The notes beneath the pieces are model-generated. The model was not told the origin of the DNA, searched no databases, and worked only from the letters and a program-made list of their open reading frames with translations. Both the position numbers and the translations under genes were made by a program. A stretch of DNA of 64,000 nt from Candidatus Latescibacterota bacterium (lineage in GTDB: Bacteria > Latescibacterota > UBA2968 > UBA8231). Each line of letters begins with the position of its first letter. Position 1 is the first letter of the stretch. Positions 27,030-61,421 of this stretch are shown piece after piece. Where the stretch lies: contig OZ220089.1 of the NCBI GenBank assembly GCA_964291625.2, positions 1,728,001-1,792,000 of the forward strand, read 5' to 3'.

Positions 27030-29483
27030 TCAGGGGACCGGCTGCGTGGCCGGCGGAGCCTCGTCGACGCGGACGTCCCAGCCCTGCACGTCGACGCCGC
27101 CGTTGCGGTTCTGGACGCGGATCGTCACCGTGTGGGTGCTCACGTCGGCCGGCCCGGGGGCCAGGGTCATGACCCCCGTCTCCCGGTCGAGGCTGATGAA
27201 GGGCGGGGCCTCGTCGAGGATGAACAGCAGCTCGTCGCCGTCCCGGAAGGCCGCCTGGTAGCGCCCGCCGGCCCCCGGGTCCTCCTGCTTCTCCGGATCG
27301 GTGATCGCGCGCAGATCGCCGATGGAGCGGATCGCCCTCACCCGGTACTGGAGGCGTTCACCGGCCGCCATGGCCGTCGGCGGGGTCGAGTAGATGAACG
27401 GCCGCGGTGCCTCCACGTAGTCCGAGGGGCCGCTGCGGACGCCGTCGGCGTCGACGGCGACGACCCGGTAGAAGCCGCGGTTGCCGGCCTCCGGCGAAAT
27501 CCCGGCGCCGGCGACGACGATCGACGTGTCGCCGCTGGCCGCCAGCCGGTTGCCCGGGACATGCCGGGACTCGGCGCCGTCGAAGACGGCGTAGGAGTCG
27601 GCGCTGGCCGTGAAGCCGCGCTCGTCGCTGCCGTAGATCTCGTAGCTCCGGGGCGGCGTCCCCTCTTCGGCGGGGCGCCAGCGAAGGGTGATCGACCGCG
27701 CCTCCCAGTCGGTGGCCAGCTCCAGGTCCCGGGGCACGCCCGGCGCCCTCGGGGTGAAGCTCCAGACCTCGCTCCAGGGGCCCCAGAGGCCATCGGCGCT
27801 GCGCGCCCGGACCCGCCAGTAGTAGCGCTCGCCCGCGTTCAGCAGCCCCTCGAAGGGGACCTGCCAGCGGGCCTCGCCCGCGGCCGGAGTCTTCGACGAG
27901 AGCTTCTCGAAGACGGGCGACAGGATGCGGCGCATGTCGGGATGGCGGGACAGCTCGAAGTGGTAGTCCTCGGCCTCCGGCACCGGCTCCCAGCGGAACT
28001 CGACCTGCGTTCCCGCCACCTCGGCGCCCGCCAGCGGATGAAGGGCCTTCGCCGGAGGCGGGGGAGGCGCCAGGTCGTGCCGCTCCTGCCAGGCGTGGAC
28101 GACGCGCACCCGGCGCGGGCCCGGGCTCTCGTCGGTGTAGACGATCTCGTTGGCCCCCAGCTCGAGGGCCGGCAGCGACAGGGGCGCCATCTGCAGGTCG
28201 GACTCGATCTCGAGGGAGGCGATGCCGCCGCCGGAACCGCGCAGCCGCAGGCGGTAGTCGTAGCACGCCTCTAGCCGCGGCAAGCCGTCCTCGAGGGCGA
28301 ACTCGCCGTCCCCGCGGATGTCCGCCAGGTGGGTCCAGCCCTCCTCGCCCTCGCGGGCCAGCTCCAGGCTCCAGGGGCCGCTCTCCGGCGCCATCTGCAG
28401 GCGCACGCGCCCTCCCACGAAGACGTAGGGGCTGCGCAGGCGGTAGACGACGCTCCCCTCCTCCTGCGGGTCGAGGACCCTCAGCCCGTCGTCCCCGGCC
28501 TCCAGGTTCGCCGACGCCTCCGTCCAGCGCCCGAAGGCGGAGTCCAGCCGCGGCCGGTAGTGCAGGCGGCCGTTGGCCAGCCGCGGCGGCGGCCGCTCGG
28601 AGAGTCCGTGGTAGCGCCCCCGGTCGGCCCACTCCCAGCGCAGCCCCTCGCCCGGCCGCAGGGTGATCTCCATGCGGTGGCCGCCGATGTAGGGCCGGCC
28701 TCCCGACCGCGGTCCGAGGTAGCAGAACAGGGAGGCGGAGAACTCGTTCGTCCGGCGGTCCTCGGCGGCCAGGATGCCGTAGGCGTGGGAGCGCTTCATC
28801 AGGTCGTGGTCGCGCGAGATCTCGGCCTCGCCGGCCACCGTGCGGTTGTCGCGCATGAGCACCAGCAGGTGCTCGTCGCTGTCGAGGAGGTGGTAGGCGC
28901 CGTCGAAGAACACCTCGGTGGTGCAGTGGCCGTGGGGCAGGCCGCGGCGGATCTTCAGCCCCGCCCGCTGCCACAGGTTGGACATGGTGTAGGCCGCGTC
29001 CCAGCACAGGGTGTAGCCGTAGACGTTGAGCATCTTCACCGTGTCCTTCACCTCGTCCGTGCCCGGCGTCGAGTGGTAGCGCCGCCGCCGGGCGAACTCC
29101 CAGATGGCGCGCGCCTTCTGCGCCTCCGTCATCTCCGGCTCGAGGATCCCCGAGAGGATGTGGTCCATCGAGCGCCAGTCGCGCCGGCCGTCGACGAGGA
29201 CCCAGGGATTCACGACCTCGTCGTCGCCCACGTTCTCCATCAGGACGTAGCGGTTCGGCTCCCACGCCTGTCCGTAGACGCCGTAGCCGACGGGGTCGCG
29301 GGTGTTGGCCCCGTCCACGGTGCCGCCCATGTCGATGCGCCAGGCCTGGCGCGCCCGGGTCACGATCTGCTCTTGCTCGAAGTCGAGGGGCCCCGCCTCG
29401 CCGCTCGCCCCGGCGGCGACACCGAGGGCCACGGCCGAGGCCACCAGGCCGGGGGCCTTGGGGTCGGTCTGCGACTCTCTCAT
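27030..29483 (-). CDS. Secreted protein with transglutaminase-like domain, FN3-like repeats and C-terminal Ig-like domain
   Basis: Signal-like N-terminus, GYTLCWD...GHCTTEVFFDGAYHLLDSD (Cys-His-Asp), YYWRVRA...GPWSEVWSF, FYRVVAVD..G.RSGPS. Confidence 0.65.
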   Translation of the reverse strand: MRESQTDPKAPGLVASAVALGVAAGASGEAGPLDFEQEQIVTRARQAWRIDMGGTVDGANTRDPVGYGVYGQAWEPNRYVLMENVGDDEVVNPWVLVDGRRDWRSMDHILSGILEPEMTEAQKARAIWEFARRRRYHSTPGTDEVKDTVKMLNVYGYTLCWDAAYTMSNLWQRAGLKIRRGLPHGHCTTEVFFDGAYHLLDSDEHLLVLMRDNRTVAGEAEISRDHDLMKRSHAYGILAAEDRRTNEFSASLFCYLGPRSGGRPYIGGHRMEITLRPGEGLRWEWADRGRYHGLSERPPPRLANGRLHYRPRLDSAFGRWTEASANLEAGDDGLRVLDPQEEGSVVYRLRSPYVFVGGRVRLQMAPESGPWSLELAREGEEGWTHLADIRGDGEFALEDGLPRLEACYDYRLRLRGSGGGIASLEIESDLQMAPLSLPALELGANEIVYTDESPGPRRVRVVHAWQERHDLAPPPPPAKALHPLAGAEVAGTQVEFRWEPVPEAEDYHFELSRHPDMRRILSPVFEKLSSKTPAAGEARWQVPFEGLLNAGERYYWRVRARSADGLWGPWSEVWSFTPRAPGVPRDLELATDWEARSITLRWRPAEEGTPPRSYEIYGSDERGFTASADSYAVFDGAESRHVPGNRLAASGDTSIVVAGAGISPEAGNRGFYRVVAVDADGVRSGPSDYVEAPRPFIYSTPPTAMAAGERLQYRVRAIRSIGDLRAITDPEKQEDPGAGGRYQAAFRDGDELLFILDEAPPFISLDRETGVMTLAPGPADVSTHTVTIRVQNRNGGVDVQGWDVRVDEAPPATQPVP

Positions 29484-31630
29484 CAGTAGGCCACGGCGAT
29501 GGCGCCGGAGTGAACGCGGGTCGACGCGTCCGTCTCGAGGTGGATCCGGAAGAGGTAGAGTCCCGGCGGCACCATCCGGCCGTCGTCGTCGCGTCCGTCC
29601 CACTCGGGCTCGGGGATGCTCCTCCCGGAGAGTCCCCGGCGGACCTCGCGCTCCTCGAGCCGGCGCACGAGGCGGCCCCCCAGGTCGTGGATGTCGACGG
29701 TGAGCCGGCGCGGCACCGTCAGCTCGTGGACGCGGAACTGCAGATGGGCGACGTCGTTGATCCCGTCGCCGTTCGGGCTGAAGGGATTCGGCGAGGCCCG
29801 CACCACGGCGAGGGGGGAGGCGCCCAGATCCGAGGTCCGCACGCCGAGGGTGTTGCCGGGATAGGCCACGGTGGCGTCGCCCTCGGTCACCTGCTGGCGC
29901 ACGCCGCCGCCCTCGGTGTCGAAGATCCAGCCGTCGAACCGGGTGCCGTAGCGCACGACCTGGGAATCGAACTCCACCTCGATGAGCTTGAAGCTGTCCC
30001 GGGCGTCTCGCAGGGGGGGCAGGCTGACGAGGAACCCGTCGTCGGCGATCTCCACGGCGCCGGTCAGGTCGATGGCGGCGCCGTCGACGCGCACGGCGCG
30101 GACCGAGTCGACCCGGGTCAGGGTGAAGACCTCGAGCCGGTCGAATCCCTGGCCGTCCTCCAGCGTCGGGAGGACGCTGTAGGTGAAGGTCGTCGCCTCG
30201 GTCCTCGGCACGTCGAGGGGCCAGATCTCGGCGACCACCCGGGCCGCCGAGGGGCGGCCGAACTGGATCTCCAGGTCCCGCAGCCGCACCGTCTGCTGCA
30301 GGGGTGACTCGAAGACCATGTGCAGCTGCAGGAAACGGGCCGGACCGGGGGAGCGGATCGGCGTTCCGTCGAGCCACGATTCGGCGCTCACCGTGGTGTC
30401 CCGCAGGCCCTCCTCCCAGGAGTACGGCGCCGACCAGTAGCTCCAGCGCTCGTCGAGGGTGGTGAAGCGATTGACGATGTCGGCCCGGTCGAACTGCTCG
30501 CGGGTCAGTTCCTCGTCGACCCCGAGGACCTCTGTCGGGATCCAGTAGCGGTCCGGGTCGGAGTCGGATCCGGAACGGGTGCGGACGATGATCCGCGCAT
30601 TCGGGTCGTGGTCGCCGCGCCAGCGCATCCGGCCCCAGGCCATGGGCTCGCCGAAGTCGAGGACGGCGGTGGTGTACACCGCCCGCGGCACGAAGCCCTC
30701 GCCGAAGACCTGGAACTCGGCCATCTCCCAGTTGGCGATGGGGTCCACGGGCCGGAAGGCGATCCACTGCAGCGGACGGGTCGGGAAACGGAGGTCGACG
30801 ACGACGTCGAAGTTCTCCCGCTCCAGGCGCAGGAGGGTGAGCTGTGGATCGGACTGCGGGTTCGACCAGCGGATGTACTGAAACCAAGGCTGGCCGCCGC
30901 CCCGCCAGAAGCAGTGGCCGGCGAAGTTGGCGGAGTTGGGCGCCACGGAGATCTCGTACCAGGGGAGGGTGTTGAGGGAGAAGTCCTGGTCGCCGAGGTC
31001 CTCCGGCTTCAGGCGCGGGGGATCCATATCGGCCAGGATCTGTTCGAGCTTGGGGTTCTCCCGGCCGATGCGCGGGAAGAAGCGGACGCGGTTGATGGGG
31101 AAGTCGGCGCCCAGATCGACGATCGTGTTCTGCACGTAGAACTGGGCCCTGACGTTCGGGTCCTCGCTGGCGCTGGCGCGGAAGAAGGCGGCCGTCTTCG
31201 GGTCGCCGTCGAAGATGGGCCGCACCACGACGACGGCGGAGACGATGTTGTTGCAGCCGCTGATGGCGATGTTGTGCAGGATGCCGTGCTTGATGCGGTC
31301 GCGCACGCCGTCCTGGGCCAGATTCAGAGTGTCGGGCAGGAAGAAGGGGCGCAGCCACTGGCCGCCGGTGCTGTCGACGGATACGGCCAGGGTCTCGCGC
31401 CACGTGGGGTACGAGGTCTGGGTGCCCACGGCCACCCGGCGGGTGCCCAGGCCGTCGCGGCCGGCGACGATGTAGTCGCCCGGCTCGGAGGAGACCGCCG
31501 CGCTCCACGGGTTGGGCTGCTCCCCCCCGAGGCCGTAGACGTTGTAGCCGTGGGCGGGGACCCCGGAAACCAGGACGGCGGCGGCGAGCAGCCAGGCGCC
31601 CGCGCTCCGTTGGCAGAGTGTCCCGAACAT
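29483..31630 (-). CDS. Secreted IAVAY-tail protein 1 (discoidin-like core, FlgD-Ig/CTD-like C-terminus)
   Basis: Signal peptide (VPAHG), IVDLG..FPINRVRFFPR, PNPFSPNGDGIND, WDGRDDDG..VPPGLY, ends IAVAY. Start uncertain. Confidence 0.85.
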   Translation of the reverse strand: MFGTLCQRSAGAWLLAAAVLVSGVPAHGYNVYGLGGEQPNPWSAAVSSEPGDYIVAGRDGLGTRRVAVGTQTSYPTWRETLAVSVDSTGGQWLRPFFLPDTLNLAQDGVRDRIKHGILHNIAISGCNNIVSAVVVVRPIFDGDPKTAAFFRASASEDPNVRAQFYVQNTIVDLGADFPINRVRFFPRIGRENPKLEQILADMDPPRLKPEDLGDQDFSLNTLPWYEISVAPNSANFAGHCFWRGGGQPWFQYIRWSNPQSDPQLTLLRLERENFDVVVDLRFPTRPLQWIAFRPVDPIANWEMAEFQVFGEGFVPRAVYTTAVLDFGEPMAWGRMRWRGDHDPNARIIVRTRSGSDSDPDRYWIPTEVLGVDEELTREQFDRADIVNRFTTLDERWSYWSAPYSWEEGLRDTTVSAESWLDGTPIRSPGPARFLQLHMVFESPLQQTVRLRDLEIQFGRPSAARVVAEIWPLDVPRTEATTFTYSVLPTLEDGQGFDRLEVFTLTRVDSVRAVRVDGAAIDLTGAVEIADDGFLVSLPPLRDARDSFKLIEVEFDSQVVRYGTRFDGWIFDTEGGGVRQQVTEGDATVAYPGNTLGVRTSDLGASPLAVVRASPNPFSPNGDGINDVAHLQFRVHELTVPRRLTVDIHDLGGRLVRRLEEREVRRGLSGRSIPEPEWDGRDDDGRMVPPGLYLFRIHLETDASTRVHSGAIAVAY

Positions 31631-31714: not shown

Positions 31715-33673
31715 TCACCAGCTCATGACCGGGTTGCCGCTGGTGCCGGTGAAGTGGTCGATGACGTACCACACCCCGGCGGTGACGAACTGCCCCAGGA
31801 TGAGGCCGAGGAAGAAGGGCCGGGTGCGCAGGTACAGCCCCGGACCGCCGTATCGCAGGACCACCGTCTTGAACAGCCAGGCGAGGAAGACGGAGAAGAA
31901 CATGGTGCCGAAGACGGCGCTGATGGGGAAGCCGAGGTGGTGGAAGGGCCACCACAGCCAGTGGTGGCGGGCCCACATGAGGAAGCCCATGAGGCCGCCG
32001 CCGACGGCGGTGTAGATCCAGTTCTCCCAGTGCGGCCCATCGAGGCTCTGGATGCGCGCCGCGGCATTGTCGAAGGGATAGCGGGCGGCGCCGCCGAAGA
32101 AGAACTGGTCGGTGTTGATCCCCCCGTACTCGTAGGCGAGCTGGAGGATCGACCAGATCGAGCTGGCCAGGGTGAGGACGATGGCGATCAGCATCGCCCA
32201 GAACACCAGCCGCCGCCGCCGGTGGATCGCCTCCTGCACCAGCTTGAGGCCGTTGGCGGCCGAGGCCATGACGAAGGTCAGGATGTCGCTGGCCCAGATG
32301 TAGGTGAAGGCGAGGGCGACGACGCCGCTCGATCCCAGGGCGCGGGTGCCGAAGTTGGCGGCCACGAAGTCGGAGGCGATCATGGGCGCGAAGATGTGGG
32401 CCAGCCCGCCCTCGGCGACGACCCGGGTGATGCCGAGGAAGAGGACGAAGGCGAGGAACAGGTAGACGAGGGTGAGCCACGGCAGCAGCCCCGACTGCCA
32501 CAGCCACACGCCCATGAAGGCCAGGCTGAAGAACAGCAGCACCACCGCCGCGCGGTACGACAGGATCTCGTCGGAGTCGTCGACGGCGGCATCGCCGGTG
32601 AGGGCCTTGCGGGCGACCTCGCGCAGGTGGCCGCGGGCCGTCCACAGGCCGTAGAGGACGAGGACGATGATGGCGCCGAACCCCTGGTGGACGATGATCG
32701 AGCCCGTGTAGGCGCTGTAGACGCCGAGGACGGGGTCGATCTTCTGCAGTCCGAGGATGTTGAAGATCCCCTGCTGGCAGGTGTTGAGGAGGAAGAAGAA
32801 GCAGAGGCCGAAGGCGATGTCGCGATTGACGAAGTAGGTGAAGCCCAGCATCTGGAAGCTGAGGCGGATGGGGACCGACACGCTCTCGCGGAAGAGGGGG
32901 ATCGACGCGTCGAGGCGCACCGTGGGGATGTAAGGGAAGTAGTGGTTCAGGCCGTTGAGGGACTGCACCACGGCGGGCACCAGGAACCCGATCCACATGA
33001 GCCGGCTGCGGAAGAACGGCTTGATCAGGGACGGGCGTTCCTCGTCCTCCTCGATCATCGACAGGGGCACCTGCACCAGGGGGTAGACGAGCCGTTCCCG
33101 CTCCACCCACTGCTTCCGCAGGATGGCCATGCTGCTGATCATGGCCACGTAGAGAGCCAGGATGAAGGGGATCCACATGGCCAGGGGCCGCAGCCAGAGG
33201 CCCCAGGGGATGCCCATGCCCTCGGGGGCGCCCTCGTAGAAGCTGCGCACCGCCTCCATCTCGTGGTGGGGGATGATCCAGTCCGGCACCGAGGGCACCA
33301 GGACGTCGTTCCAGGCGTTCTCGGGCGTGGCGTAGTAGATCAGGGAGGTGATGTCGGGCAGCAGGAAGGCCGTCAGCCCCCACTCGGGGATCGCCGTGGC
33401 CACGATCCACATGATGTAGACCAGGGCCAGCTCGCCGCGGTTGAGCATCCAGCCGCGCCGCATCAGGCCGATGGCGGTGTTGACGAAGAGGACCAGGAAG
33501 AAGAACAGGATGATCGCCGCCGGGGTGTTGAAGTAGGAGGCGATCCGCGACCCGTGGAGCACCATGTTGCAGTAGGGCACCCCGGCGCCGATGGCGATCG
33601 ATCCGGCGGCGCCCACGAGGAGGGCGCGCAGCCCGGGCGCGGAGGTCTTCCCTGGGTCGGGTGATGTCTTCAC
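31715..33673 (-). CDS. DUF6785/DUF6784-like polytopic membrane protein (putative transporter)
   Basis: LNRGELALVY, W..W..PL..W, LRKQWVERERLVYPLVQVP, TRVVAEGG, WWPFHHLG, LRYGG..LY...RPFFLGLILG. Start uncertain. Confidence 0.78.
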   Translation of the reverse strand: MKTSPDPGKTSAPGLRALLVGAAGSIAIGAGVPYCNMVLHGSRIASYFNTPAAIILFFFLVLFVNTAIGLMRRGWMLNRGELALVYIMWIVATAIPEWGLTAFLLPDITSLIYYATPENAWNDVLVPSVPDWIIPHHEMEAVRSFYEGAPEGMGIPWGLWLRPLAMWIPFILALYVAMISSMAILRKQWVERERLVYPLVQVPLSMIEEDEERPSLIKPFFRSRLMWIGFLVPAVVQSLNGLNHYFPYIPTVRLDASIPLFRESVSVPIRLSFQMLGFTYFVNRDIAFGLCFFFLLNTCQQGIFNILGLQKIDPVLGVYSAYTGSIIVHQGFGAIIVLVLYGLWTARGHLREVARKALTGDAAVDDSDEILSYRAAVVLLFFSLAFMGVWLWQSGLLPWLTLVYLFLAFVLFLGITRVVAEGGLAHIFAPMIASDFVAANFGTRALGSSGVVALAFTYIWASDILTFVMASAANGLKLVQEAIHRRRRLVFWAMLIAIVLTLASSIWSILQLAYEYGGINTDQFFFGGAARYPFDNAAARIQSLDGPHWENWIYTAVGGGLMGFLMWARHHWLWWPFHHLGFPISAVFGTMFFSVFLAWLFKTVVLRYGGPGLYLRTRPFFLGLILGQFVTAGVWYVIDHFTGTSGNPVMSW

Positions 33674-33731: not shown

Positions 33732-35447
33732 TCACGGCTGGCGGACCCGCACGACGCGGTCGGCCGCCATCGGGCCCAGCCTCTGCGATCCGCCGCCGGG
33801 CCAGCGCACCTCCACGGCGTCCACCGTGGCCCGCGGCCCCAGGCCGAAGTGGGCCCGGGTATCGTTGTGGGAGAGGTAGCTGCCGCCGGCGGCGATCTCC
33901 ACCGTCCTCGAGAGATCGCCGGCGGTCACCGTCACGAGAGCGCCGACGCCGTCGCGGTTGGCCGCCGTGCCCCGCAGATCGACGATGAGCCAGTGCCCCG
34001 CCGCAGGACCGTCGTTGCGCAGCAGCGCCGGCCGGTCGTCGAGGCGCATGGCCACCAGGTCGACGTCGCCGTCCTCGTCCCAGTCGCCCTTCATCAGGCC
34101 GCGGGTGACGCCGGGCCGGGCGAGATCCCCCCCCGGCGCCGGCTCGAAGCGGTGTCCCGCCGCGGCGCCGAGGTTGAGCAGCAGCAGATCGGGCTGCGCG
34201 TAGCGGGGCCCGTCGAGGAGACGGACCTGCGGGTAGACGTGCCCCTGGCCGACGGCCAGGTCGAGATCGCCGTCGTTGTCGGCGTCGAGGAAGCAGGTGC
34301 CGAAGGCGAGGCCCGGCAGGCCCACCTGGGCCAGACCGGCTTCGTGGGATGCGACGGTGAAGCGGCCGCCGCCGTCGTTGCGGTAGAGGGTGTTGTAGTC
34401 GTCCTCGAAGTGGGTGACGAAGAGATCGCCGTCGCCGTCGCCGTCGTAGTCGCCGCTGGCGATGCCCATGCCGGCCTGGGCCGTGCCCTCGGCGCTGAAG
34501 GCGGCGCGGGCTTCCCAGGCCGCCTCCCGGAACCGCGGTCCGCCGCCGCCCTCGTTGCGGAACAGGTAGTTGGGCGCCGAGTCGTTGGCCACGTAGATGT
34601 CCGGGTCGCCGTCACCGTCGTAGTCGGTGAAGACGACCCCGAGGCCGTACGTCGGGTCCACCCCGGCCACTCCCGCGGACCGGCCGACCTCCGCGAAGCG
34701 GCCCCCGTCGTTTCGCAGCAGGGCATCGGCGTGGCCGGGCAGCCCCATGGGGCCGGCGAAGACCATCAGACCCTTCCACATCCCGGCCCGCGGCGGGATG
34801 GCGTCGACGTCGAAGTCGACGTAGCGGGCGACGTAGAGGTCGAGGTCGCCGTCCAGGTCGTAGTCGCCGAAGGCGGCGCCCGTGCACCAGCCGCCGAGGT
34901 CCAGGGAACCGTCCTCGGCGTAGAGCACCCCCTCCGCGCCGAGGTTCCGGTAGAGGCCGGCCCCGTCGAGACGCGTGACTACGAGGTCGGCGTCGCCGTC
35001 GTTGTCGACGTCGGCCGCCGAGGCCCCCATGCCCCAGCCTTCCCCGGCCGCGGCGGGCAGGCCCGTCTCGGCAAAGGTGCCGTCCCGCCGGTTGAGGTAG
35101 AGGGCGTCGGACGAGGCGGCGGGATCGTCCTCCTCCAGGGTGCCGCCGTTCACGAGGTAGAGGTCGAGCCAGCCGTCCCCGTCGGCGTCGAAGAGGGCGC
35201 CGCCGCCGCCCTTCGCCTCCACGATGTAGTCCTTGACCCCGCCCCCGGCGCGGTGGCGGAAGCGGATCCCGGCCTCCTCGGTGACGTCCGTGAAGCGGGG
35301 GCCGGCGCCGACCTCCCCCTCGGCCTCCGCGCCCGCGGCGGGGGCGGCCTCCTGCGGCGGCCGGGAGGCGTCTCCCGTGCAGGCGGCGAGACAGGCCGCC
35401 ATGGCCGCCGCCCGGCGCAGGACCGCCGCCCGCCTGCCGCTACTCAC
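33732..35447 (-). CDS. CRTAC1/ASPIC-UnbV family FG-GAP repeat protein
   Basis: Repeated DxDGDGxxDLYV blades, MGIASGDYDGDG, C-terminal GGSYLSHND...HFGLG....VEVRWPGG. Lipobox-like CLAAC. Confidence 0.92.
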   Translation of the reverse strand: MSSGRRAAVLRRAAAMAACLAACTGDASRPPQEAAPAAGAEAEGEVGAGPRFTDVTEEAGIRFRHRAGGGVKDYIVEAKGGGGALFDADGDGWLDLYLVNGGTLEEDDPAASSDALYLNRRDGTFAETGLPAAAGEGWGMGASAADVDNDGDADLVVTRLDGAGLYRNLGAEGVLYAEDGSLDLGGWCTGAAFGDYDLDGDLDLYVARYVDFDVDAIPPRAGMWKGLMVFAGPMGLPGHADALLRNDGGRFAEVGRSAGVAGVDPTYGLGVVFTDYDGDGDPDIYVANDSAPNYLFRNEGGGGPRFREAAWEARAAFSAEGTAQAGMGIASGDYDGDGDGDLFVTHFEDDYNTLYRNDGGGRFTVASHEAGLAQVGLPGLAFGTCFLDADNDGDLDLAVGQGHVYPQVRLLDGPRYAQPDLLLLNLGAAAGHRFEPAPGGDLARPGVTRGLMKGDWDEDGDVDLVAMRLDDRPALLRNDGPAAGHWLIVDLRGTAANRDGVGALVTVTAGDLSRTVEIAAGGSYLSHNDTRAHFGLGPRATVDAVEVRWPGGGSQRLGPMAADRVVRVRQP

Positions 35448-38323: not shown

Positions 38324-39146
<823 letters not shown>

Positions 39147-39163
<17 letters not shown>

Positions 39164-50359: not shown

Positions 50360-52156
50360 TCAAGGAGAAAATCGGCCCTCCGGGGACCCTCCGGAGCCCC
50401 CCTTTCCGTCTCCCTTTCGGGACGGCGCGGCCAGGAGCCTGCGGGCATAGTCGTCGAAAGTGCGCACGAATTCCGGGTCCACGGTGGGGAGCACCAGGCC
50501 GGCTCGCCGGACGGCCTCCTCCACCTCGGCGCGCTGCTCCCGCGTGAGGCGGCCGTCCTGCAGGTAGAGGCGGCACCGGCCCAGCCGCAGGGACGGCCAC
50601 AGGTCTCCCCAGGCGGTGAAGGGGACCTCCCGCACCGCGGCCCGGTAGTGCTCGGCGGCCTCCGCGAACCTGCGGCCCCCGAACAGCTGGTCGGCCACGG
50701 GCAGGACCAGGGGCGGACGCCGGCCCATCTTCTCCCAGGCGCGGTAGCCTCTGCGCTCCTGCTCACCGAGTCCGGACCGGATCTCCCCCGCCTGCCGGCG
50801 CAGCCGCTCGGCGGCGTCCGGCTGCCGGAGCGGTGGCCCGGACAGGAGACGGGCCCCCGCCTCGGCCAGGGCGAGCGCTTCGATGGGCAGGTCCCCGTGG
50901 GCCTCCAGCAGGGCCGCGTCCCCGGGGGCCCTGGACTCCCAGTCGGCGGGCACGTCCCAAGGAGCCGGGGAGCCGACGAGGGCGGCGACGACCGAGCGCG
51001 CCAGCAGGGCGTGTCCCCGGGCCGTGGGATGGACGTGGTCCACCATCAGGCCCCACCCGGGCGCGGCGCCGGCGGCCGCCGCGGCCAGCCGCCCCTCGGC
51101 GTCGGCCAGAGCCACCCGGTGGCGGGCGGCGGCCTCGCGGACCGTGCGCACCAGATCCAGAGGCGCGCGCCACGGCGCCGGGTCGGCCGCCCGGGCCGCG
51201 GCGAAGACCCGCGCCGCTTCCGCCAGGCGCCCGGCGGCGGCCAGCTCGCGCCCACGGTCCGCCGCCGCCGCCGCCCGGCGGCCTCCCTCCGAGGTGGTGT
51301 CGGGCTGGAACCCGGCGTCGTTGGCGGCCGGCGCGCACACCACCAGCCGGCTCCCCGCCTTGCGGCACGCGGCGGCGATCTCCTCGAGGCTGAACCGCAG
51401 CTGCCGGACGGCCTAGTCCCGCGCCGGGTCTCCCGGCGGCACCGGCCCCGCCGAACCCATGGCCGCCAGCAGGTTCATCTCCGGCGCCGGCCCCTGCCGG
51501 ACCTGCCCGGCGAGCCAGCGCACGAGACCGGTGAGCCGCAGTCCCATCAGGCGATAGTGGAGGTGGCGGATCCAGGGGCTGGAGCCGCCCTGGCGCAGGG
51601 AGGAGACACCGTACACGCCGTAGAACTCGTTGTGGCCCGTGTAGACCACGACCAGGTCCGGCTGCAGGCTCTCGAGGGCGTCGACGACGACGCGGGCCAC
51701 GGCGAAGCTCGCCAGTGAGGTGATGCCCAGGTTCAGGACCTGCACGGGGCGCTCGAGGGCCCCGGAGAGCAGCGTCTCCAGGAGGGCCGGGGCCGCGAGA
51801 CGGGCCGGATGGGGGTACCCCTGGACCGTGGACGCGCCGGCGACGACCACGCGCAGCGCCGAATCCGGGGGCGGATCGACGAAGCGATGCGCCGCCAGGC
51901 GCACGCCCCCCAGATCGAACCCGCCCATGGAGCCGGCGAAGAACCGCCTCGGATAGAGGGGGTTGAGCTGGCGCAGGGCCCGCCCCGATCCGACCTCCTC
52001 GGCGAGGGTGAGCACCAGGGGCGGCGGGCGGAACCCCGGCACCAGATGGAGCGCGGCTTCGACGCCGGCGACGAGAACCACCCCGCCCGCCAGGGCCGGC
52101 AGCCGGACCCGCCAGCGGCTCGGTGCGTCGGGCCTGCCCTCCCCCCCGGCGGTCAA
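50360..52156 (-). pseudogene. SGNH/GDSL-like protein with TPR-like segments, interrupted by an in-frame TAG at 51413-51415
   Basis: ORFs 51413-52156 and 50360-51343 are in the same frame. GASTVQGYP, NLGITS and GHNEFYG lie before the stop, DHVHPTARGH after it. Colinear with the intact paralog at 58973-60547. Confidence 0.8.
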
Positions 52157-53803: not shown

Positions 53804-55501
53804 ATGACCATGCAAAGAGCCGGAGGACCCCTTGCGGCGCTGATCGCCGGCGTCATCGGAGCCGCTTTCGTCGGCTGTGGCGGCGGGGGGCCCGCCGTCG
53901 TCGCCGAGGTCGCGGGGCGGCCGATCGACGAGGAGTCCCTGCGGCGCCTCGTGATGACCCTGCCCCCAGGGCTGAGGACCGCCAAGAAGGGGCAGGAGGC
54001 CCGCCGCGACTATCTGCAGACGCTCATCGATCGGGAGCTCATGCTGCTGGAGGCCGAAGCGCGGGGCCTGCAGGAGGATCCGGAGCTGCTCGGCCGGCTG
54101 CAGCGCAAGGTGGAGGACCGGGTCCTCTCCCTCTACCGCCAGCGGGAGATCCCGGCCGTCGAGGTGACCGCCGAAGAGGTGGAGACGCACATCCGGGAGT
54201 TGGGGCTGCACCGGGAGCGGCTGGCGGAGGCGATCCCGGCGGAGTCGGAGGAGGAGGCGCAGCGGCTTCTCGGCGAGCTCGCCGGCGGACGGCCCTTCGA
54301 GGAGCTGGCGGCCGCACGGCCCGGCTCCCGCGGCAGCGTGGTGGGCTACCTCAACCGCCTCACGGCCCCGCGGGCGGGCGTCCCGGCGCCGGTCTTCGAT
54401 ACCCTGGCCGTGGGCGAGGTCTCCCGGCCCCTGCCCCTGGGCGGCGGCTGGCGCCTGGTGCGCTTCATCGACGACCGCACCTCCACCGACCCCGTCCTGC
54501 GAGACCGCGTGCGCCAGCGCCTCGTCCGCGAGGCCCGCCAGGAGATCGAGGACCAGAAGGTCGAGTTGCTCGCCCGCGAGCTGGACTGGGCGCCCGATAG
54601 CGAAGGCCTGGCCTTTCTCGCCGGCCTCGACACCGGAAGCCGCCGCCTTCGGGAGCTGACCCCCTCCGAGGCCCGGATGCCGCTGTTCACCTTCGAGGGC
54701 GGCGCCGTGACCGTCGATGAATACCTGAACGCGGTCCGCGAGCACAGGGTACGCACCGCCCGGGCCCTGTCGGACAGCGCCTTCGCCTCGGCCCTCGGGC
54801 AGCGCCTCCTCCAGGCCCGCGCCCTGCTCCTGGTCGCCGCCGACCGCCTCGGCATCCCCGAAGAGCCCGGGGTCGTCGACTGGCGGGACCAGGTGCATCC
54901 CGAGATGCTCCTGCGGAGCCTTCGCGCCCAGGTGATCCGGGGCGCCGACTCGATGGCCACCGAGGTGCGGGTGCGCGCCTATTATGATGAACGCCAGGAG
55001 AGCTTCCGCCTGCCCGAGGAGGTCTGCTTCGACGAGATCCTCTTCCGCACCCGCCAGGAGGCCGAGCAGGCCCTTGGCGAGATCGACGACGACGCGCAGC
55101 TCCTCGAGCTCTCCCGCCGGCGCGGCAACAAGGTCCGCAGGCGCCGGCCGGACGGCCTGCTGTGCGCCAACAGCGCGTCCCGTCAGGTGCTGCCCGAGCT
55201 CTGGGCCGTCCTCGAGCAGGCGCCGCCGGGGGTGGTGACGGGTCCGGTATCGCTGCAGGACAAGGCGTACGTGCTGATCAAGGTCGTCCGCCGGGAGCCG
55301 GAGAGACTCCAGACCTTCGACGAGGCCCGAGGCCGCGCCAGGGCTTCCCTCGTGGCCGGCTTCCAGCAACGGCTCTTCGAGGACTGGCTGGCGGGCGTGC
55401 GGGAAGATCGGCAGGGGGAGGTCCGGGTCTTCGAGGACCTCCTCGAGGCCGCCCTCCCCGAGGCCCTGCTGGCCGGGGTCGTCCTCGAGAACGAGACGTG
55501 A
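53804..55501 (+). CDS. PrsA/SurA-like parvulin (PpiC) foldase lipoprotein with tandem domains
   Basis: Lipobox FVGC, VVAEVAG..I, LQTLIDRELMLLEA...GL, G.PFEELA, L.VGEVS.P, VRAYYDERQESF..PEEV, TFDEAR. Confidence 0.82.
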   Translation: MTMQRAGGPLAALIAGVIGAAFVGCGGGGPAVVAEVAGRPIDEESLRRLVMTLPPGLRTAKKGQEARRDYLQTLIDRELMLLEAEARGLQEDPELLGRLQRKVEDRVLSLYRQREIPAVEVTAEEVETHIRELGLHRERLAEAIPAESEEEAQRLLGELAGGRPFEELAAARPGSRGSVVGYLNRLTAPRAGVPAPVFDTLAVGEVSRPLPLGGGWRLVRFIDDRTSTDPVLRDRVRQRLVREARQEIEDQKVELLARELDWAPDSEGLAFLAGLDTGSRRLRELTPSEARMPLFTFEGGAVTVDEYLNAVREHRVRTARALSDSAFASALGQRLLQARALLLVAADRLGIPEEPGVVDWRDQVHPEMLLRSLRAQVIRGADSMATEVRVRAYYDERQESFRLPEEVCFDEILFRTRQEAEQALGEIDDDAQLLELSRRRGNKVRRRRPDGLLCANSASRQVLPELWAVLEQAPPGVVTGPVSLQDKAYVLIKVVRREPERLQTFDEARGRARASLVAGFQQRLFEDWLAGVREDRQGEVRVFEDLLEAALPEALLAGVVLENET

Positions 55502-55589: not shown

Positions 55590-58500
55590 ATGAATCGAAC
55601 CTTCGGATGTTGGGGCTGGTTGGGGGTCATCGCCGCGGGTGCCGGCCTCGGTGCCGCCGACACGGCGGACGCCGCGGACGGGTTCCGCATGAGCGGCGAC
55701 CGGATCGTCATCGACCGGGCGGAGGACTGGAGCCAGTGGCGGCGTCCCTCCCACGCCACCGAGATCGACGCGGACGGCGGGTTCGTGCGTCCCCTGCTGG
55801 TGCGCAGGGAGATCAACGCCATTCCCGGCATGGACCAGTTCACGAGTCTCATCGGCGATCAGAGGGCCCTCGACAAGCTGGTCAAGGACGTCGACCGGGA
55901 GGGCGGGGCCATGCCCATGAACATCCGCTCCCAGGCGGCCTCGGTGGCGGGCGTCCCCATCGTGCACCTCAAGGACAACGAGAAGAAGGGAATCAAGGCG
56001 GGGGACCCGATCGAGTGGTTCTACTACTTCGGCGGTATCCGCCACACACCGCGCAGCGCCGAGTCGGCGTCCAACATTCTGGACGGCGATCCCTCCAGCT
56101 ATTGGGAGCCCACGACCCTGGTCACCGAGGGGGAGTGGCTGGACCTGCCCGAGGCCAGGCGCGGACCCAAGATCTTTCTCGCTCCCGATGCGGCGGGCGA
56201 TCTTGCCCGGGTGGACTCGCTGGCCTGGCTGTCGGCGCCCACCAACGAGCGGCAGGTGGAGTACCACAGCCATGACCTCTCCGAGTGGTATGTCGACATC
56301 GAGCTCGGGCGTGTCCTGCCCGTGCGGTTCATCGTTCTCCGCTTCGCCGACCCCGAGGTGGGCGAGCCCTTCCGCCAGTTCCGCATCCTCGGCACCGCCT
56401 CGCACCTGCGCGACGCCCCCCTGGGGCTGATCGCGCGCACCAACACGCCGAACGAGGACCACCAGGTCGTCAGCTTCGAGCTCGGATCGGGACCAGCCAC
56501 CCCGAGCGTCGGCTCCGAGGCGGTGATCGACTTCGACACTCCCGGCGGCTACCAGCAGCTCCACCGCCTGCGCATCGCCGTCACCGACAGCCGCTTCGAC
56601 CGCTTCCGCCGGCTGGCCTCCGAGGAGGAGTACCTGGCCCTGCCGCTGCAGGACCGCGGCAGCATCGAGTACCACATCGTCAATGCCGCCGGGACCGAGA
56701 CCCGCGTGGACAGGGAGGTCTACGACAAGGTCGACGACGATCGCAAGGGCTCCCGCGTCTACTACCAGCGCGAGCGTCCGCGCCTGGCCGATATCGAGGT
56801 CTGGACCCAGGGGGACAACATCTCCCTAGGCGTGATCGACGGCGGCGGCAGCGTCGACCTGACGGGGGCCCGCGTCGGCGACCCGGGCTTCGACGGCCTC
56901 TACGAGACCAACTACCTGCAGCTCGTGTGGTCCTCGGACGCGCGCTACTCCAACCGGGGCATCATGAACCTCGACCTGGGGGCCCGCTTCTGGCTCGACT
57001 TCTTCCGCATGGTGGGCTGGTTCAACGGCGTCGACGAGATCGTCACCTGGGTCTCCGACGGCAGCCGCGACCCCAACGGCAACCTGCGCTTCACCGAGAT
57101 CGACCGCGACCCGAGCGGACAGGGGCGCAGCGACATCGAGATCTCCCTTGAGGAGCCCATGCCGGTGCGCTACCTGCGCACACAGATCTTCTCCGACGCA
57201 CCCGGGCGGGCGGGCGGATACAACACCGGCGACCGCATCCGGGAGTTCCAGATCTTCGGCGACGGCTACCCCTCCCAGGTCACCCTCTCCTCCCCGATCA
57301 TCGAGCTGCCGGGAGCCACCTTCCTCGGCGCCATCACCTGGGACGCGGACGTTCCGAACCCGGATCTCGCGGACGTCGAGATCCGCACGCGCACCGGCGA
57401 CCGCCTGGTGGACGTGACCGAGTACTACGGCAGCGGCGGCGAGCCCAAGACCGAGGCCGAGTACAACAAGCTGCCTACCAGCTTCAAGGGCCCCGTCGTG
57501 CCCCGGCGGGTCCCCGGGGGCGGCTGGAGCTCCTGGAGCCAGCGCTACCTGGTCCCGGGCCAGCGCGTGACCTCCCCGAGCCCGCGGAGGTATCTGCAGA
57601 TCCAGGCGCGGCTGCTGTCGTTGACGCCGGACCTCGCCGCCACCCTGCGCTCCATCGAGGTGGAGCTGCTGCCGCCGGCGGCCGCCAGCTCCCTGGCCGA
57701 GGTGTGGCCCTCGGAGGCGACGCCGGGCCACATGGAGGTCTTCGATCTCTTCGTGCGGCCCACCTTCATCGAGGAGGATCCGGACGGCGAGCCGAGCAGC
57801 CGCTTCGACGAGATCCTGGTCGACGCCGACCCCATCCAGGAGTTCGAGCTGCTCCACATCGCCATCGGTGCCGAAGGGGACATGGAGGACGGCGGCACGG
57901 CCCAGCGGTTCTCCGAGCCGGCGTCGCGGACCGACCCGGATACAGGGGCTCCGACGAACTGGTTCGAGGGCGACGACGGCCCCTTCCTGGCCCTCCTCGA
58001 CCCGTCCTCGGGCGACACCCTCAAGGTGCTGCAGGGAGGCCTGCCGGGGATCGCCGCGCCGGAGCCGGATGAGGCTTCCCGGGTGCTGTTGAGGCTGCCC
58101 AGGAGGGTGGCCCCCCTGCCCGCGGGCGACGGCGACCGGCTCTTCCACCGCAAGATCCTCGAGGTCGAGGAAGAGGTGCCGGTGGACGAGGACGGCCGCA
58201 TCCTGAACGAGCTGACCTACCTCGGCCTTCCCATGGAGCAGCAGGGGAGGATCCTGTATTTCGAGATCACCGGGCGCACCGACGCGGGCGGTCCCCTGCA
58301 GGAGCAGGTGGAAGAGTTCGACTACCGAGCCCTGCCGGACTCCGCCAAGGGCGAGATCCGCTACTTCCGCAAGCTCGTCGGCTCCGGAGGGGAGTTCCCC
58401 TACGACCGCGAGGGGGTGCCCCTCACCGAAGCCGCGTACAACCAGTTGCCCCAGGCCGAGCGAGGCCGCGTGCAGGCTGCCGGCGAGCTGGTCCGCATCG

Positions 58501-58976
58501 CTTTCCGCGCCAAGGTGCTGCTCAACGGAACCACCCTCGACGTGGCCATCCGCGACTCCGAGGGCGGGAGCGGCTGGCAACAGGTCGACCCGGGGAACGC
58601 AACGCTCCTGCAGCCGGGTGACGGCCTCAGCATCGCCGTTCCCATCAGCCGGCAGGTGGTGCGCGGCATCCAGGTCGAGCCGAGGACGTTCACCCCCAAC
58701 GGCGACGGCATCAACGACCTCACCGAGGTCCGGTTCTCGGTGGGCAACGTCAACGTGGCGCGTCCCGTGGAGCTGCGGATCCACGACCTCAGCGGACGCC
58801 TGGTGTGGCGCGAGGAGCGCCTGACCTTCGGCGACCAGAGCTTCCAGTGGGACGGTTCGGACGGCTCCGGCAACCTCGTGGCTCCGGGCCTGTACCTGTG
58901 CCGCGTGGTGGTCGATGTCGACGACGCCGGCGCCTCGAGAAGGGCCGACCAACGGCTCATCGCCGTCGCTTACTGA
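55590..58976 (+). CDS. Secreted IAVAY-tail protein 4 (largest, with internal short repeats)
   Basis: Signal peptide, two discoidin-like units (ILDGDPSSYW, IELGR, LDLGARF), FQIFGDGY, WSSWS, SPSPRRYLQ, TFTPNGDGIND, ends IAVAY. Confidence 0.88.
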   Translation: MNRTFGCWGWLGVIAAGAGLGAADTADAADGFRMSGDRIVIDRAEDWSQWRRPSHATEIDADGGFVRPLLVRREINAIPGMDQFTSLIGDQRALDKLVKDVDREGGAMPMNIRSQAASVAGVPIVHLKDNEKKGIKAGDPIEWFYYFGGIRHTPRSAESASNILDGDPSSYWEPTTLVTEGEWLDLPEARRGPKIFLAPDAAGDLARVDSLAWLSAPTNERQVEYHSHDLSEWYVDIELGRVLPVRFIVLRFADPEVGEPFRQFRILGTASHLRDAPLGLIARTNTPNEDHQVVSFELGSGPATPSVGSEAVIDFDTPGGYQQLHRLRIAVTDSRFDRFRRLASEEEYLALPLQDRGSIEYHIVNAAGTETRVDREVYDKVDDDRKGSRVYYQRERPRLADIEVWTQGDNISLGVIDGGGSVDLTGARVGDPGFDGLYETNYLQLVWSSDARYSNRGIMNLDLGARFWLDFFRMVGWFNGVDEIVTWVSDGSRDPNGNLRFTEIDRDPSGQGRSDIEISLEEPMPVRYLRTQIFSDAPGRAGGYNTGDRIREFQIFGDGYPSQVTLSSPIIELPGATFLGAITWDADVPNPDLADVEIRTRTGDRLVDVTEYYGSGGEPKTEAEYNKLPTSFKGPVVPRRVPGGGWSSWSQRYLVPGQRVTSPSPRRYLQIQARLLSLTPDLAATLRSIEVELLPPAAASSLAEVWPSEATPGHMEVFDLFVRPTFIEEDPDGEPSSRFDEILVDADPIQEFELLHIAIGAEGDMEDGGTAQRFSEPASRTDPDTGAPTNWFEGDDGPFLALLDPSSGDTLKVLQGGLPGIAAPEPDEASRVLLRLPRRVAPLPAGDGDRLFHRKILEVEEEVPVDEDGRILNELTYLGLPMEQQGRILYFEITGRTDAGGPLQEQVEEFDYRALPDSAKGEIRYFRKLVGSGGEFPYDREGVPLTEAAYNQLPQAERGRVQAAGELVRIAFRAKVLLNGTTLDVAIRDSEGGSGWQQVDPGNATLLQPGDGLSIAVPISRQVVRGIQVEPRTFTPNGDGINDLTEVRFSVGNVNVARPVELRIHDLSGRLVWREERLTFGDQSFQWDGSDGSGNLVAPGLYLCRVVVDVDDAGASRRADQRLIAVAY

Positions 58977-60640: not shown

Positions 60641-60689
60641 GGCGAAGATCGTCTGACCAAGGCCCTCGCCCCTCGCCGGAGGACGGAAG

Positions 60690-61421
60690 ATGAGACGCCT
60701 CGGAGCCGCCCTGCCCCTCTTTCTGCTCACCCTCGGCTGCGGCTACTCCTACTACTCCGAACCCCTTCAGCCCCTCGGATCGCAGGCCCCCCACCTGCAG
60801 GTGCAGGACGACGGGGGCGTCCACTTCACCCAGGGCCGGCTGGAGGTCCGCGTGCGGCCCATGACCGAGGACGAGCTCAACCGGCGGTTCCAGTCGGCCT
60901 CGGTCCACGGCGTCCACTCGACCAATCCCTACACCTTCGGTAACGCCGAGCGGCCCGAGCAGGAGTCGGAGGACCGGTTCACCGTCTTCCTCCTGAGCGT
61001 CAAGAACTACGAGTATCCCAAGGTCCTCATCGATCCGATGAAGATCGCCCTCTACGCCGACAACGGACGCGAGTACTGGTCTCTCGACATCCTGCAGCTG
61101 ACCAACTACTACCGCGCCTACGCCCAGGGTTACCGGGGCAACGAGTACGGCCGCTTCCGCGAGCGCCAGGACCTGCTCAACCGCACCATGTTCCCCAAGG
61201 AGATGATCTTCAGCGGCCAGGAGCTGGAGGGGTTTCTCGTCTTCCGCAGCCTGCACTCGGACGTGGCCAACCTGACGCTGACCATCCACGGCGCCGTGAC
61301 CCGCTTCGACTACCGCGACGAGCCCGTGGAGAAGGTCGACATCTCCTACCGGTTCGGACGCGAGGTGGGGCGGCTCTACCCCGGAGGCCGCCGCCAGCCG
61401 AGCACCGCCTCGGCCTCCTGA
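60690..61421 (+). CDS. Hypothetical lipoprotein
   Basis: Lipobox LTLGC, beta-rich and Tyr-rich body, GGAGG upstream. Confidence 0.8.
   Translation: MRRLGAALPLFLLTLGCGYSYYSEPLQPLGSQAPHLQVQDDGGVHFTQGRLEVRVRPMTEDELNRRFQSASVHGVHSTNPYTFGNAERPEQESEDRFTVFLLSVKNYEYPKVLIDPMKIALYADNGREYWSLDILQLTNYYRAYAQGYRGNEYGRFRERQDLLNRTMFPKEMIFSGQELEGFLVFRSLHSDVANLTLTIHGAVTRFDYRDEPVEKVDISYRFGREVGRLYPGGRRQPSTASAS

Follow-up and report, generated by a model that had tools for sequence, protein, structure and literature searches.

A recurrent and apparently undescribed Latescibacterota surface kit: tyrosine-tailed T9SS-type proteins encoded beside a giant outer-membrane barrel

The stretch of DNA considered here (the 'window', 64 kb from the genome of a Candidatus Latescibacterota bacterium) carries four genes for proteins with related C-terminal domains (CTDs) that end in tyrosine (the 'Tyr-tail' proteins), together with a series of envelope-type neighbours. 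The features, in window coordinates, are as follows.

29483..31630, minus strand: Tyr-tail CTD protein, gamma subfamily, 715 aa; recent paralog of 39147-41318
31715..33616, minus strand: polytopic membrane protein (DUF6785+DUF6784), candidate inner-membrane transporter, with function inferred
33732..35402, minus strand: FG-GAP/ASPIC-UnbV propeller protein, a recurrent cassette neighbour (10/16 paralogs near Tyr-tail genes)
35440..38268, minus strand: PcRGLX-like/GH127-like enzyme, possibly a substrate-processing passenger
38324..39025, minus strand: FGE-sulfatase-domain protein
39147..41318, minus strand: Tyr-tail CTD protein, gamma subfamily, 723 aa; structure model and fold matches
41436..44141, plus strand: Tyr-tail CTD protein, beta subfamily, 901 aa
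44163..46460, minus strand: membrane glycosyltransferase-like protein, GT-C (PMT_2) + TPR (61/61 full related loci)
46495..49212, minus strand: unannotated outer-membrane beta-barrel of ~900 aa (905 aa), with two large loop inserts, one of them Asp/Asn-rich
49359..50252, minus strand: CBM9-like secreted protein with a SWGxIK C-terminal motif
50360..52156, minus strand: SGNH/TPR gene with an in-frame TAG at 51413-51415; orthologs uninterrupted
52153..53778, minus strand: GT-C (TMTC-like) + TPR protein (25/61 full related loci)
53804..55501, plus strand: parvulin/SurA-like foldase with a lipobox-like Cys (7/7 paralogs in Tyr-tail loci; 59/61 related loci)
55590..58976, plus strand: Tyr-tail CTD protein, alpha subfamily, 1128 aa
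59009..60547, plus strand: SGNH hydrolase + TPR protein (20/61 related loci)
60690..61421, plus strand: orphan lipoprotein, found also after ExbD in core loci

One sequencing run contains 0.97 of the window's sequence words and may be its source run; the word shares of other runs (0.06-0.15, two of them RNA) give no evidence of habitat or expression.

The four open reading frames singled out by the original prediction (715, 723, 901 and 1128 aa) are present as claimed and end in IAVAY-stop, and each starts with a Sec-type N-terminus (a basic-hydrophobic-AxA start, read by eye). The motifs said to unite them hold for the most part: the ordered core, F[TS]PNGDG[IV]ND and DLxGRxV are found in all four, while AE[IV][WY]P, like the strict form of the C-terminal WDG..G..V..G.Y pattern, is found in three. 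Strong divergence, claimed for all four, does not extend to the gamma proteins 29483-31630 and 39147-41318, which are 55% identical across 698 residues. The product of 39147-41318 (AF2 model, pLDDT 90) is composed of a signal peptide, a CBM32/F5-8-like head (Z 13.2 against a CBM32 in a fold comparison of the model), a stalk, an Ig domain and the CTD, in that order; the heads of Tyr-tail proteins have lectin folds, and fold comparison revealed no catalytic domain among them. A likeness of the stalk to phage tails (Z 9.8) was discarded, the viral library having given it no backing.

The assignment of the C-terminal domain to the sorting type is borne out. CHU_C (PF13585) matches the C-terminus at 28.9, 28.4 and 30.1 bits in three of the four proteins and at 26.8 bits in the other (cut-off 27), and the CTD of 39147-41318 is an Ig-like beta-sandwich that aligns with the PorU CTD (Z 11.7, rmsd 2.7, 99 residues) and with PorZ (Z 10.1, rmsd 2.6, 90 residues); TIGR04131 does not reach its cut-off of 35 in any of the four (18.1-19.9 bits). 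What did not survive is the invariant pentapeptide as a recognition signal. The genome-wide count with a CTD profile, proposed as a check, recovered 29 Tyr-tail paralogs, the four window genes among them, every one of which ends in Tyr and five of which keep IAVAY; of the 195 complete CTDs in 77 related loci (kin, not independent samples), 193 have Tyr as their last residue and 40 have the full IAVAY, and orthologs of the window genes carry the tails IGVAY, VGVAY, ISLVY and LSLAY. The exact word was rejected as a signal because so few paralogs and orthologs carry it: what stays the same is that a T9SS CTD of type-B-like kind closes with Tyr, and the 29 Tyr-tail CTDs form a class distinct from the genome's 102 type-A-like CTDs, whose ends differ. 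Four IAVAY ends in one locus would have a chance probability of 2e-4 if taken alone, for a locus that was chosen for that trait. The greater likeness of tails within than between loci (p 0.004) falls to p 0.095 over the seven loci left when the window locus is excluded, so a locus-specific tail code was dropped; a search for locus-specific co-variation of the CTDs found none.

The accessory genes named in the original prediction (a parvulin, two GT-C/TPR proteins, SGNH proteins, an orphan outer-membrane protein and a lipoprotein) are likewise present, one of the SGNH proteins (50360-52156) coming from a single gene broken by its in-frame TAG. Their predicted co-occurrence is far above chance and extends across the phylum: none of the 25 paralogs of the giant barrel in this genome, spread over 12 loci, is farther than 5.6 kb from a Tyr-tail ORF (background: 6.5% of genes within 15 kb), all seven parvulins lie in Tyr-tail loci, and the gene sets are conserved over 61 full related loci. 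A single alpha, beta and gamma protein per locus is clear in 6/8 such loci of this genome and in 53 of those 61. DUF6785 genes stand within 15 kb of a Tyr-tail gene in 10/27 paralogs and are present in 44/61 full related loci, and Tyr-tail genes are near 10/11 paralogs of the CBM9-like protein (whose SWGxIK motif is conserved in the alignment) and 8/11 of the orphan lipoprotein. The DUF6785 and CBM9-like profiles found no significant match in the PDB, Pfam, NCBIfam and further searches gave no family for the lipoprotein, and atlas searches for barrel and lipoprotein returned unnamed clusters only, with DUF6029 (0.89) and DUF4352 (0.79) as leads. The barrel and Tyr-tail families share their distribution (93 and 92 of 153 phylum genomes), and the sole genome with a barrel outside the Tyr-tail count carries a divergent Tyr-tail gene. 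Literature searches showed no description of the cassette among the papers listed. The window carries one copy of this repeated and apparently undescribed surface kit of the Latescibacterota.

The giant barrel of the window has no match in Pfam or NCBIfam and no sequence relative in the PDB. Its model (pLDDT 67, pTM 0.69) has 23 strands, with a 24th inferred, and does not resolve the N-terminal 118 residues. Fold searches returned generic barrels only, with Deinococcus SlpA at the top (Z 12.4, rmsd 6.1, 335 residues) and FimD (Z 10.6, rmsd 4.6, 297 residues) ranking level with numerous unrelated barrels; SlpA_C (PF21620) matches weakly in 11 of 44 relatives, always below its cut-off (best 30.2 versus 35). 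Several identities were tried and rejected: a PorP/SprF or PorV shuttle (905 aa against ~300-400, no PF11751 or PF19572, PorV profile probability 0.4%), a SprA homolog (profiles show no similarity) and a TonB-dependent receptor (no PF07715 plug or PF00593 barrel match in Pfam, and probabilities of 0.1-1.1% in hhalign profile comparison with the genome's 20 such receptors). Replacement of those receptors by the barrel family was also rejected, since four genomes, some having the cassette and some lacking it, encode 22-24 plugs each, and a small one encodes 5. The predicted complex of barrel and alpha CTD (score 0.00, mark 0.32) speaks neither way. Each type-1 locus has three barrel subtypes, kept across families, which suggests trimers.

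Barrels also occur alone. In relatives G017 and G036, 15/16 and 10/11 of the barrel stretches lack a Tyr-tail gene ('solo' barrels) and have DUF4159, DUF6785, CBM9-like or catabolic genes as neighbours, and for this reason a transporter role fits better than that of a CTD anchor. Catabolic genes are common throughout these genomes. Other barrel clades have expanded, one to 17 copies and one to 43 or more, and for the most part they stand alone, with no CTD protein as partner. The solo barrels fall outside the clade of the window's barrel, in which a Tyr-tail gene is present in 61/61 full loci, so that this clade may be a true anchor.

The notion of a self-contained export machine in the window found no support. 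SprA, two PorU and PorV are encoded elsewhere in the genome, above curated cut-offs, the best candidate for a tail receptor also lies outside, and the giant barrel has been amplified without CTD proteins in two relatives. In the suggested survey of T9SS core genes, PorP/SprF was not found in the genome, and for the PorKLMN motor there was no GldL, GldM or GldN match and a sub-cut-off GldK, in a search whose controls were equally silent for L, M and N. The FGE-sulfatase gene 38324..39025 was rejected as PorK, since its 97.5 bits fall far short of the 350 required. SprA was detected in 151 of the 153 phylum genomes; one cassette genome, 96% complete and in 60 contigs, gave no SprA match, and a cassette operating without T9SS was rejected, as PorU and type-A CTDs are present in both SprA-less genomes, whose assemblies are fragmented. 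Within the family, PF11751 (PorP/SprF) matched 0/69 genomes, while the same search matched in 29 others.

That candidate receptor is a PorV-like barrel of the 'core' loci. All 14 of 14 loci from other families run from the Tyr-tail gene through a PorV-like small barrel to the giant barrel; four of them seeded the PorV-like profile and ten did not. The PorV-like gene stands beside a big TPR gene in 13/16 loci of the window genome's own family, and was not found in two large cassette-free families (0/31 and 0/22). With 36-85 bits these genes stay below the cut-off of 90, and they give weak matches to the FadL/BamG models as well; in relative G035 the linked gene exceeds the PF11751 cut-off (24.1 versus 22.3). 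The three core loci that were read from end to end continue with TPR, ExbB, ExbD and ExbD, and DUF4159 genes lie inside or adjoin core loci. The DUF4159 proteins have one N-terminal hydrophobic segment and, in several, SxxLH, which we take to be a TonB-like motif; one has an AgmX/TonB C-terminal domain above cut-off. This ExbB/ExbD/TonB-like energiser is linked to the giant barrel in core loci only; ExbBD, DUF4159 and PorV-like genes are absent from the 64-kb window, and energising in trans is assumed on that account.

Four known systems invite comparison. The SusC/SusD polysaccharide utilisation loci (PULs) and utilisomes of Bacteroidota are present in numerous divergent copies in a genome; every locus has a large outer-membrane barrel, surface binding proteins and membrane transporters, and a few encode the energiser. 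The cassette resembles them in all of these respects, and differs in that sequence does not place its barrel among the TonB-dependent receptors, its binding proteins belong to the T9SS-type cargo and not to the lipoproteins, a DUF4159 protein occupies the place of plain TonB, and import is putative. The barrel of Deinococcus SlpA has 30 strands. This and the OmpM trimeric barrels (PF21620; PDB 7zgx, 8ae1) are the best generic fold match, with weak profile matches in one stretch, but those matches are sub-cut-off, the model here has ~24 strands, SLH is lacking and the genes are multi-copy. Chaperone-usher pili (FimD, PapC) share a ~24-strand barrel, a periplasmic chaperone and a fixed set of Ig-type lectin subunits, and differ in their usher and PapD families, which gave no match here; the present subunits have a complete T9SS-type CTD and the beta-sandwich insert of the giant barrel reads as an outer loop. 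Finally, T9SS type B cargo with PorP/SprF shuttle-anchors (SprB-SprF and PG1035-PorP-PorE; PMC12618676, PMC9143113) is like the Tyr-tail proteins in its signal peptide and PNGDG-type CTD of PorU-CTD fold, in forming a second CTD class next to many type A cargo in a genome with SprA, and in the small shuttle-family barrel gene that directly follows the cargo gene in Latescibacterota core loci. It differs in that the Latescibacterota tail ends in Tyr and misses the TIGR04131 cut-off, that the linked small barrel is PorV/PorQ-like rather than PF11751, that one or few shuttle copies serve up to 29 cargo, and that PorKLMN was not found while a giant barrel, ExbBD2, DUF4159 and a TPR module are added.

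A working scheme may be drawn. The Tyr-tail proteins would be exported by Sec and then by the SprA translocon that the genome encodes, forming a second T9SS cargo class of type-B-like character (by homology), the signal probably being the folded CTD whose last strand ends in Tyr rather than the word IAVAY. They would leave SprA on a dedicated shuttle of the PorV/PorQ superfamily, which gene order suggests takes the place of PorP/SprF, and which, encoded in core loci, would serve all copies. An alpha, a beta and a gamma protein (a stoichiometry of one each, taken from gene content), each a carbohydrate-binding-like head on a common stalk, may then assemble into a set that binds ligands at the giant barrel of the locus, either on it or next to it; the barrel is itself a putative gated importer or receptor. 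Energy would be supplied in trans by the core-locus ExbB-ExbD-ExbD, the TonB-like DUF4159 protein and the large TPR scaffold, with DUF6785 as a presumed inner-membrane partner, the parvulin folding and the GT-C/TPR proteins glycosylating surface parts. The role of the kit is most likely the capture and import of food molecules. That it combines T9SS-delivered surface binding proteins with an ExbBD-energised importer, PUL-like but from new parts, and that the dedicated PorV-like shuttle rather than the giant barrel reads the tail, is a reading from sequence to which we give even chances; that the window is a satellite copy of such a multi-copy capture and import kit is judged about equally balanced. 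A bolder formulation is more doubtful: a new class of proton-driven outer-membrane machine, with trimers of an unrelated ~24-strand barrel that bear a fixed, T9SS-delivered lectin hetero-trio as a cap and connect by way of a giant TPR scaffold to an ExbB-ExbD2-DUF4159 motor, which might be the Latescibacterota counterpart of SusC/SusD in tens of copies, supplied by a T9SS with SprA, PorU and many PorV-like shuttles and no gliding-type motor.

Other explanations account for parts of the same evidence. One is the dedicated export machine of the original prediction, here given an usher-like form: the ~24-strand barrel would translocate alpha, beta and gamma and build a short fibre or a tip from them, the parvulin acting as chaperone and ExbBD driving the process. 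Pilin C-termini have a terminal Tyr on an alternating hydrophobic strand, which the Tyr tails resemble by analogy, and the fixed set of three subunits, one each, the usher-sized barrel with its FimD alignment, the parvulin in 7/7 such loci and the 96%-complete cassette genome without a SprA match all point the same way. We nevertheless consider it improbable: the CTD folds as a complete Ig domain, as in PorU, the usher and PapD-chaperone Pfam families are absent from the 20 window proteins scanned, the FimD match shares its rank with unrelated barrels, the SprA-less genome retains PorU and many type-A CTDs in its 60 contigs, and solo barrels would have no subunits to assemble. Somewhat better placed, though still unlikely, is adhesin display, whereby the giant barrel would serve as cognate anchor, an oversized analogue of PorP/SprF, and hold the T9SS-secreted lectin trio on the surface for attachment to host or particle glycans, and ExbBD/TPR tether or move the complex without import. 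The constant Tyr-tail neighbours of the window's barrel clade, the lectin-fold heads lacking a visible catalytic domain, the 0/69 count for PorP/SprF and the anchoring of Bacteroidota type-B cargo by cognate linked barrels (PMC9143113, PMC12618676) would suit it; the small PorV-like barrel that already follows the Tyr-tail gene in other families, the copy numbers of mostly partnerless barrel clades and the missing CTD co-variation argue against it.

Less probable again is a structural envelope complex, a surface layer of trimeric SlpA/OmpM-like porins decorated with glycoproteins. The top fold match, the SlpA_C hits, the three conserved barrel subtypes and the GT-C genes of almost every locus are consistent with it, but every one of those hits is sub-cut-off, neither SLH nor a coiled-coil stalk was found, and tens of diverged copies linked to ExbBD and DUF6785 better match substrate-specific work. 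The most ordinary explanation, routine CHU_C/FlgD-Ig-tailed T9SS cargo in an accidental cluster of envelope genes, can draw on the database label of relatives ('gliding motility-associated C-terminal domain'), on the SprA, PorU and PorV encoded elsewhere, and on the streptococcal C5a peptidase, which has a PNGDG/WDG Ig domain without T9SS. It is very improbable, and largely refuted already by the linkage of barrels and parvulins against background, to which the conserved gene sets and the matching distributions across 153 genomes may be added.

If the capture and import kit is real, it would bring to light a family of large outer-membrane barrels that has no annotated or solved relative; in a poorly understood phylum, 93 of the 153 genomes sampled carry it, some of them with tens of copies. 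It would also add a second class of T9SS cargo from beyond the Bacteroidota, served by a PorV-like shuttle of its own. It has been proposed that the T9SS arose within the Bacteroidota gliding machinery (PMC12635249), and a SprA without a detected PorKLMN would bear on that origin. In a phylum in which SprA is nearly universal (151/153) and that motor goes undetected, the kit would offer a handle on T9SS function.

The four open reading frames noted in the window lie where they were placed (29483-31630, 39147-41318, 41436-44141 and 55590-58976), each ending in IAVAY-stop, and their shared motifs keep the order described, two of them occurring under a strict pattern in only three of the four proteins. 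The idea of an invariant terminal pentapeptide acting as a recognition signal did not survive a wider search. A C-terminal domain (CTD) profile run against the host genome (5.9 Mb, two contigs, C1 and C2; the window is C1:1728001-1792000, and its relatives are labelled Candidatus Latescibacterota, some of them Gemmatimonadota) returned 29 strong members, every one Tyr-terminal (hence ‘Tyr-tail’), with endings that include IAVAY (5), VHVAY (5), VSVVY (3) and others. Across 77 loci that surround relatives of the window’s giant barrel (a predicted outer-membrane protein), 193 of 195 complete CTDs were Tyr-terminal and 40 ended in IAVAY. Tails within a locus resembled one another above chance only with the window included (p 0.004; p 0.095 with it left out), and whole-CTD likeness within loci was not significant. 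Because the Tyr end is near-constant, IAVAY is a minor form and the likeness is window-dependent, what is conserved is a class of CTDs marked by a terminal Tyr and a hydrophobic final strand, and the pentapeptide is incidental.

Pfam CHU_C was passed by three of the four window proteins, and the TIGR04131 cut-off by none. A second, weaker CTD class in the same genome comprises 102 domains that lack PNGD and are mostly Arg- or Lys-terminal, with Lys or Arg six residues before the end in 86; one scanned protein of this class passed the type A model TIGR04183. A third sorting tail is probably represented by [ST]W[GA]x[IVL]K, found within 25 residues of the stop in 54 called genes (including window 49359-50252) with very diverse N-terminal domains, most of them remote from Tyr-tail loci.

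Regarding the core secretion genes, the search found SprA, PorU and PorV, but PF11751 (PorP/SprF) and GldL, GldM and GldN gave no match in the host genome; for the three Gld proteins the controls were equally silent, so that this silence does not show absence. Two PorU genes over cut-off and 14 PorV-like barrels are encoded there, the PorU-related loci being:

C1:1099923-1104840, porU-porV pair
C1:4476450-4480130, second PorU, over cut-off
C1:2247186-2252693, longer PorU-like gene

GldK matched below its cut-off. SprA exceeded its cut-off in 151 of 153 sampled genomes of the phylum, PF11751 was matched in 0 of 69 genomes of the host’s family, and GldM_4th in 0 of 153, with controls silent too; the phylum apparently has a T9SS without a gliding-type motor.

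The 39147-41318 product, modelled without its signal peptide (pLDDT 90), consists of a galactose-binding-like head (Z 13.2 against a CBM32, rmsd 2.5 over 125 residues), a stalk, an Ig domain and a CTD (Z 11.7 against PorU, rmsd 2.7 over 99 residues), with no recognised catalytic domain. A quick tree of 28 of the 29 Tyr-tail members (one frameshifted fragment omitted) resolved subfamilies alpha, beta, gamma and delta. Single alpha, beta and gamma members are clear in six of eight type 2 loci of the genome, the other two having unplaced members; gamma is duplicated in the window, and the four type 1 loci hold one delta apiece. When the full-length related loci, which are kin, were typed by their best BLAST matches, 53 of 61 proved to carry exactly alpha, beta and gamma. 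An alpha paralog (C1:302499-304959) and a barrel paralog (C1:4213527-4216405) are each split over two frames, by lesion or assembly error; an alpha-barrel pair also lies on a 4.7-kb contig labelled Bryobacterales, reflecting mis-binning or transfer. In each type 1 locus a type A CTD protein (at 2074-3987 of locus L088, with three paralogs) directly precedes the delta gene, and its relatives also accompany solo barrels in the phylum genome G017.

The giant barrel of the window (46495-49212) matched no Pfam or NCBIfam family and no PDB sequence, and its neighbours in an Atlas search were all unnamed. Its model (pLDDT 67, pTM 0.69) has 23 long strands, short turns alternating with long loops, and two inserts, one a beta-sandwich and one Asp/Asn-rich; a 24th strand is inferred within the first 118 residues, which are not resolved in the model. 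Fold searches returned generic barrels (top, SlpA, Z 12.4, rmsd 6.1), and profile comparison gave no kinship to PorV, SprA or TonB-dependent receptors. Type 1 loci contain three barrel subtypes retained across families, which hints at trimers. The barrel family occurs in 93 of the 153 genomes, 92 of which also have the Tyr-tail family; four families (60 genomes) lack both, and all 60 have SprA. Among stretches chosen from the top barrel matches, a Tyr-tail gene was present in 1 of 11 in genome G036 (17 matches) and 1 of 16 in G017 (at least 43). Such solo barrels form clades distinct from that of the window barrel and adjoin DUF4159, DUF6785, CBM9-like and catabolic genes.

In three other genomes (G054, G046, G036), core loci run Tyr-tail, small PorV-like barrel, giant barrel(s), large TPR, ExbB, ExbD, ExbD. 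The small barrels score 36-85 bits against NF033709, below the cut-off of 90; their best host matches, C1:289072-289998 and C2:448672-449604, are near-identical, the latter without cassette neighbours. A profile built from five PorV-like genes matched 88 of 153 genomes, two small cassette-free families weakly, and 0 of 53 genomes of two large cassette-free families. Among its 30 best loci, all 14 from other families (four seeded the profile, the remaining ten are one family) keep the order Tyr-tail, PorV-like, giant barrel; of the 16 own-family loci, 13 place the PorV-like gene beside a large TPR gene and the other three are without a cassette neighbour inside 1.5 kb. The N-terminus of the DUF4159 proteins bears a hydrophobic segment, in several of them with SxxLH, which we take to be a TonB-like motif; one of these proteins carries an AgmX/TonB domain at its C-terminus.

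Most of the accessory genes proposed as partners do co-occur with the Tyr-tail genes, as linkage in the host genome and the contents of related loci attest. Of the 4,695 genes in the host genome (our own calls), 6.5% have a Tyr-tail gene no more than 15 kb away; against that background, the counts were 25/25 for paralogs of the window barrel, 7/7 for parvulins, 10/11 for CBM9-like proteins, 8/11 for lipoproteins, 6/8 for the first kind of GT-C/TPR protein, 10/16 for ASPIC and 10/27 for DUF6785; the second GT-C (1/2) and SGNH (2/3) are small families. The 61 full related loci hold Tyr-tail (61), GT-C/TPR (61), parvulin (59), CBM9-like (49), DUF6785 (44), SGNH (20) and lipoprotein (3) genes.

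Within the window, an in-frame TAG (51413-51415) splits the SGNH gene, by lesion or assembly error. PcRGLX-like genes (rhamnogalacturonan lyase-like, GH127-like; 24510-27026 and 35440-38268) flank the first Tyr-tail gene and are a possible clue to substrate. A SulP sulfate permease (61533-63257) lies directly past the cassette. By eye, the translations of 1-6225 resemble PhoU, a two-component pair and a phosphate ABC transporter, and in 6299-20064 genes of glycosyltransferase-like, RND/MMPL-like and flippase-like kinds lie clustered together.

Gene content, linkage, distribution and domain folds are what was observed, and the reading they suggest, a T9SS-delivered binding set with barrel import energised in trans, has in our estimation an even chance of being correct as a whole. 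Tyr-tail proteins would be exported by Sec and then SprA and handed to a dedicated PorV-like shuttle; alpha, beta and gamma would form a binding set at the giant barrel, the ExbBD/DUF4159/TPR module of the core loci would power import in trans, and the surface parts would be folded by the parvulin and glycosylated by the GT-C proteins. Against this reading stand the lack of plug homology in the giant barrel, the lack of energiser and shuttle genes in the window, and the fact that Tyr-tail genes are never missing from full loci of the window barrel’s clade.

A role for the giant barrel as the CTD anchor is less favoured because core loci contain a PorV-like gene and solo barrels occur without Tyr-tail genes; that the cassette encodes adhesins anchored on the barrel is unlikely, if the foremost of the alternatives. 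An usher-like machine is less probable still, a structural porin layer would be surprising, and an accidental gene cluster, considered alongside the linkage counts, is scarcely credible.

Type B CTD/shuttle pairs have been defined in Bacteroidota, in the portions consulted of the relevant papers (PMC12618676, PMC9143113, PMC10994853, PMC12635249, PMC12204202); ‘Latescibacter’ is absent from the main text of the last two. The literature listings searched, mostly outside subscription journals and without supplements (where a phylum-wide T9SS table may exist), gave no account of the cassette. The cassette around the Tyr-tail genes is real, conserved and multi-copy, and is built on a barrel family without a known relative; in its Tyr-ended sorting tail the T9SS type B signal takes a new form.
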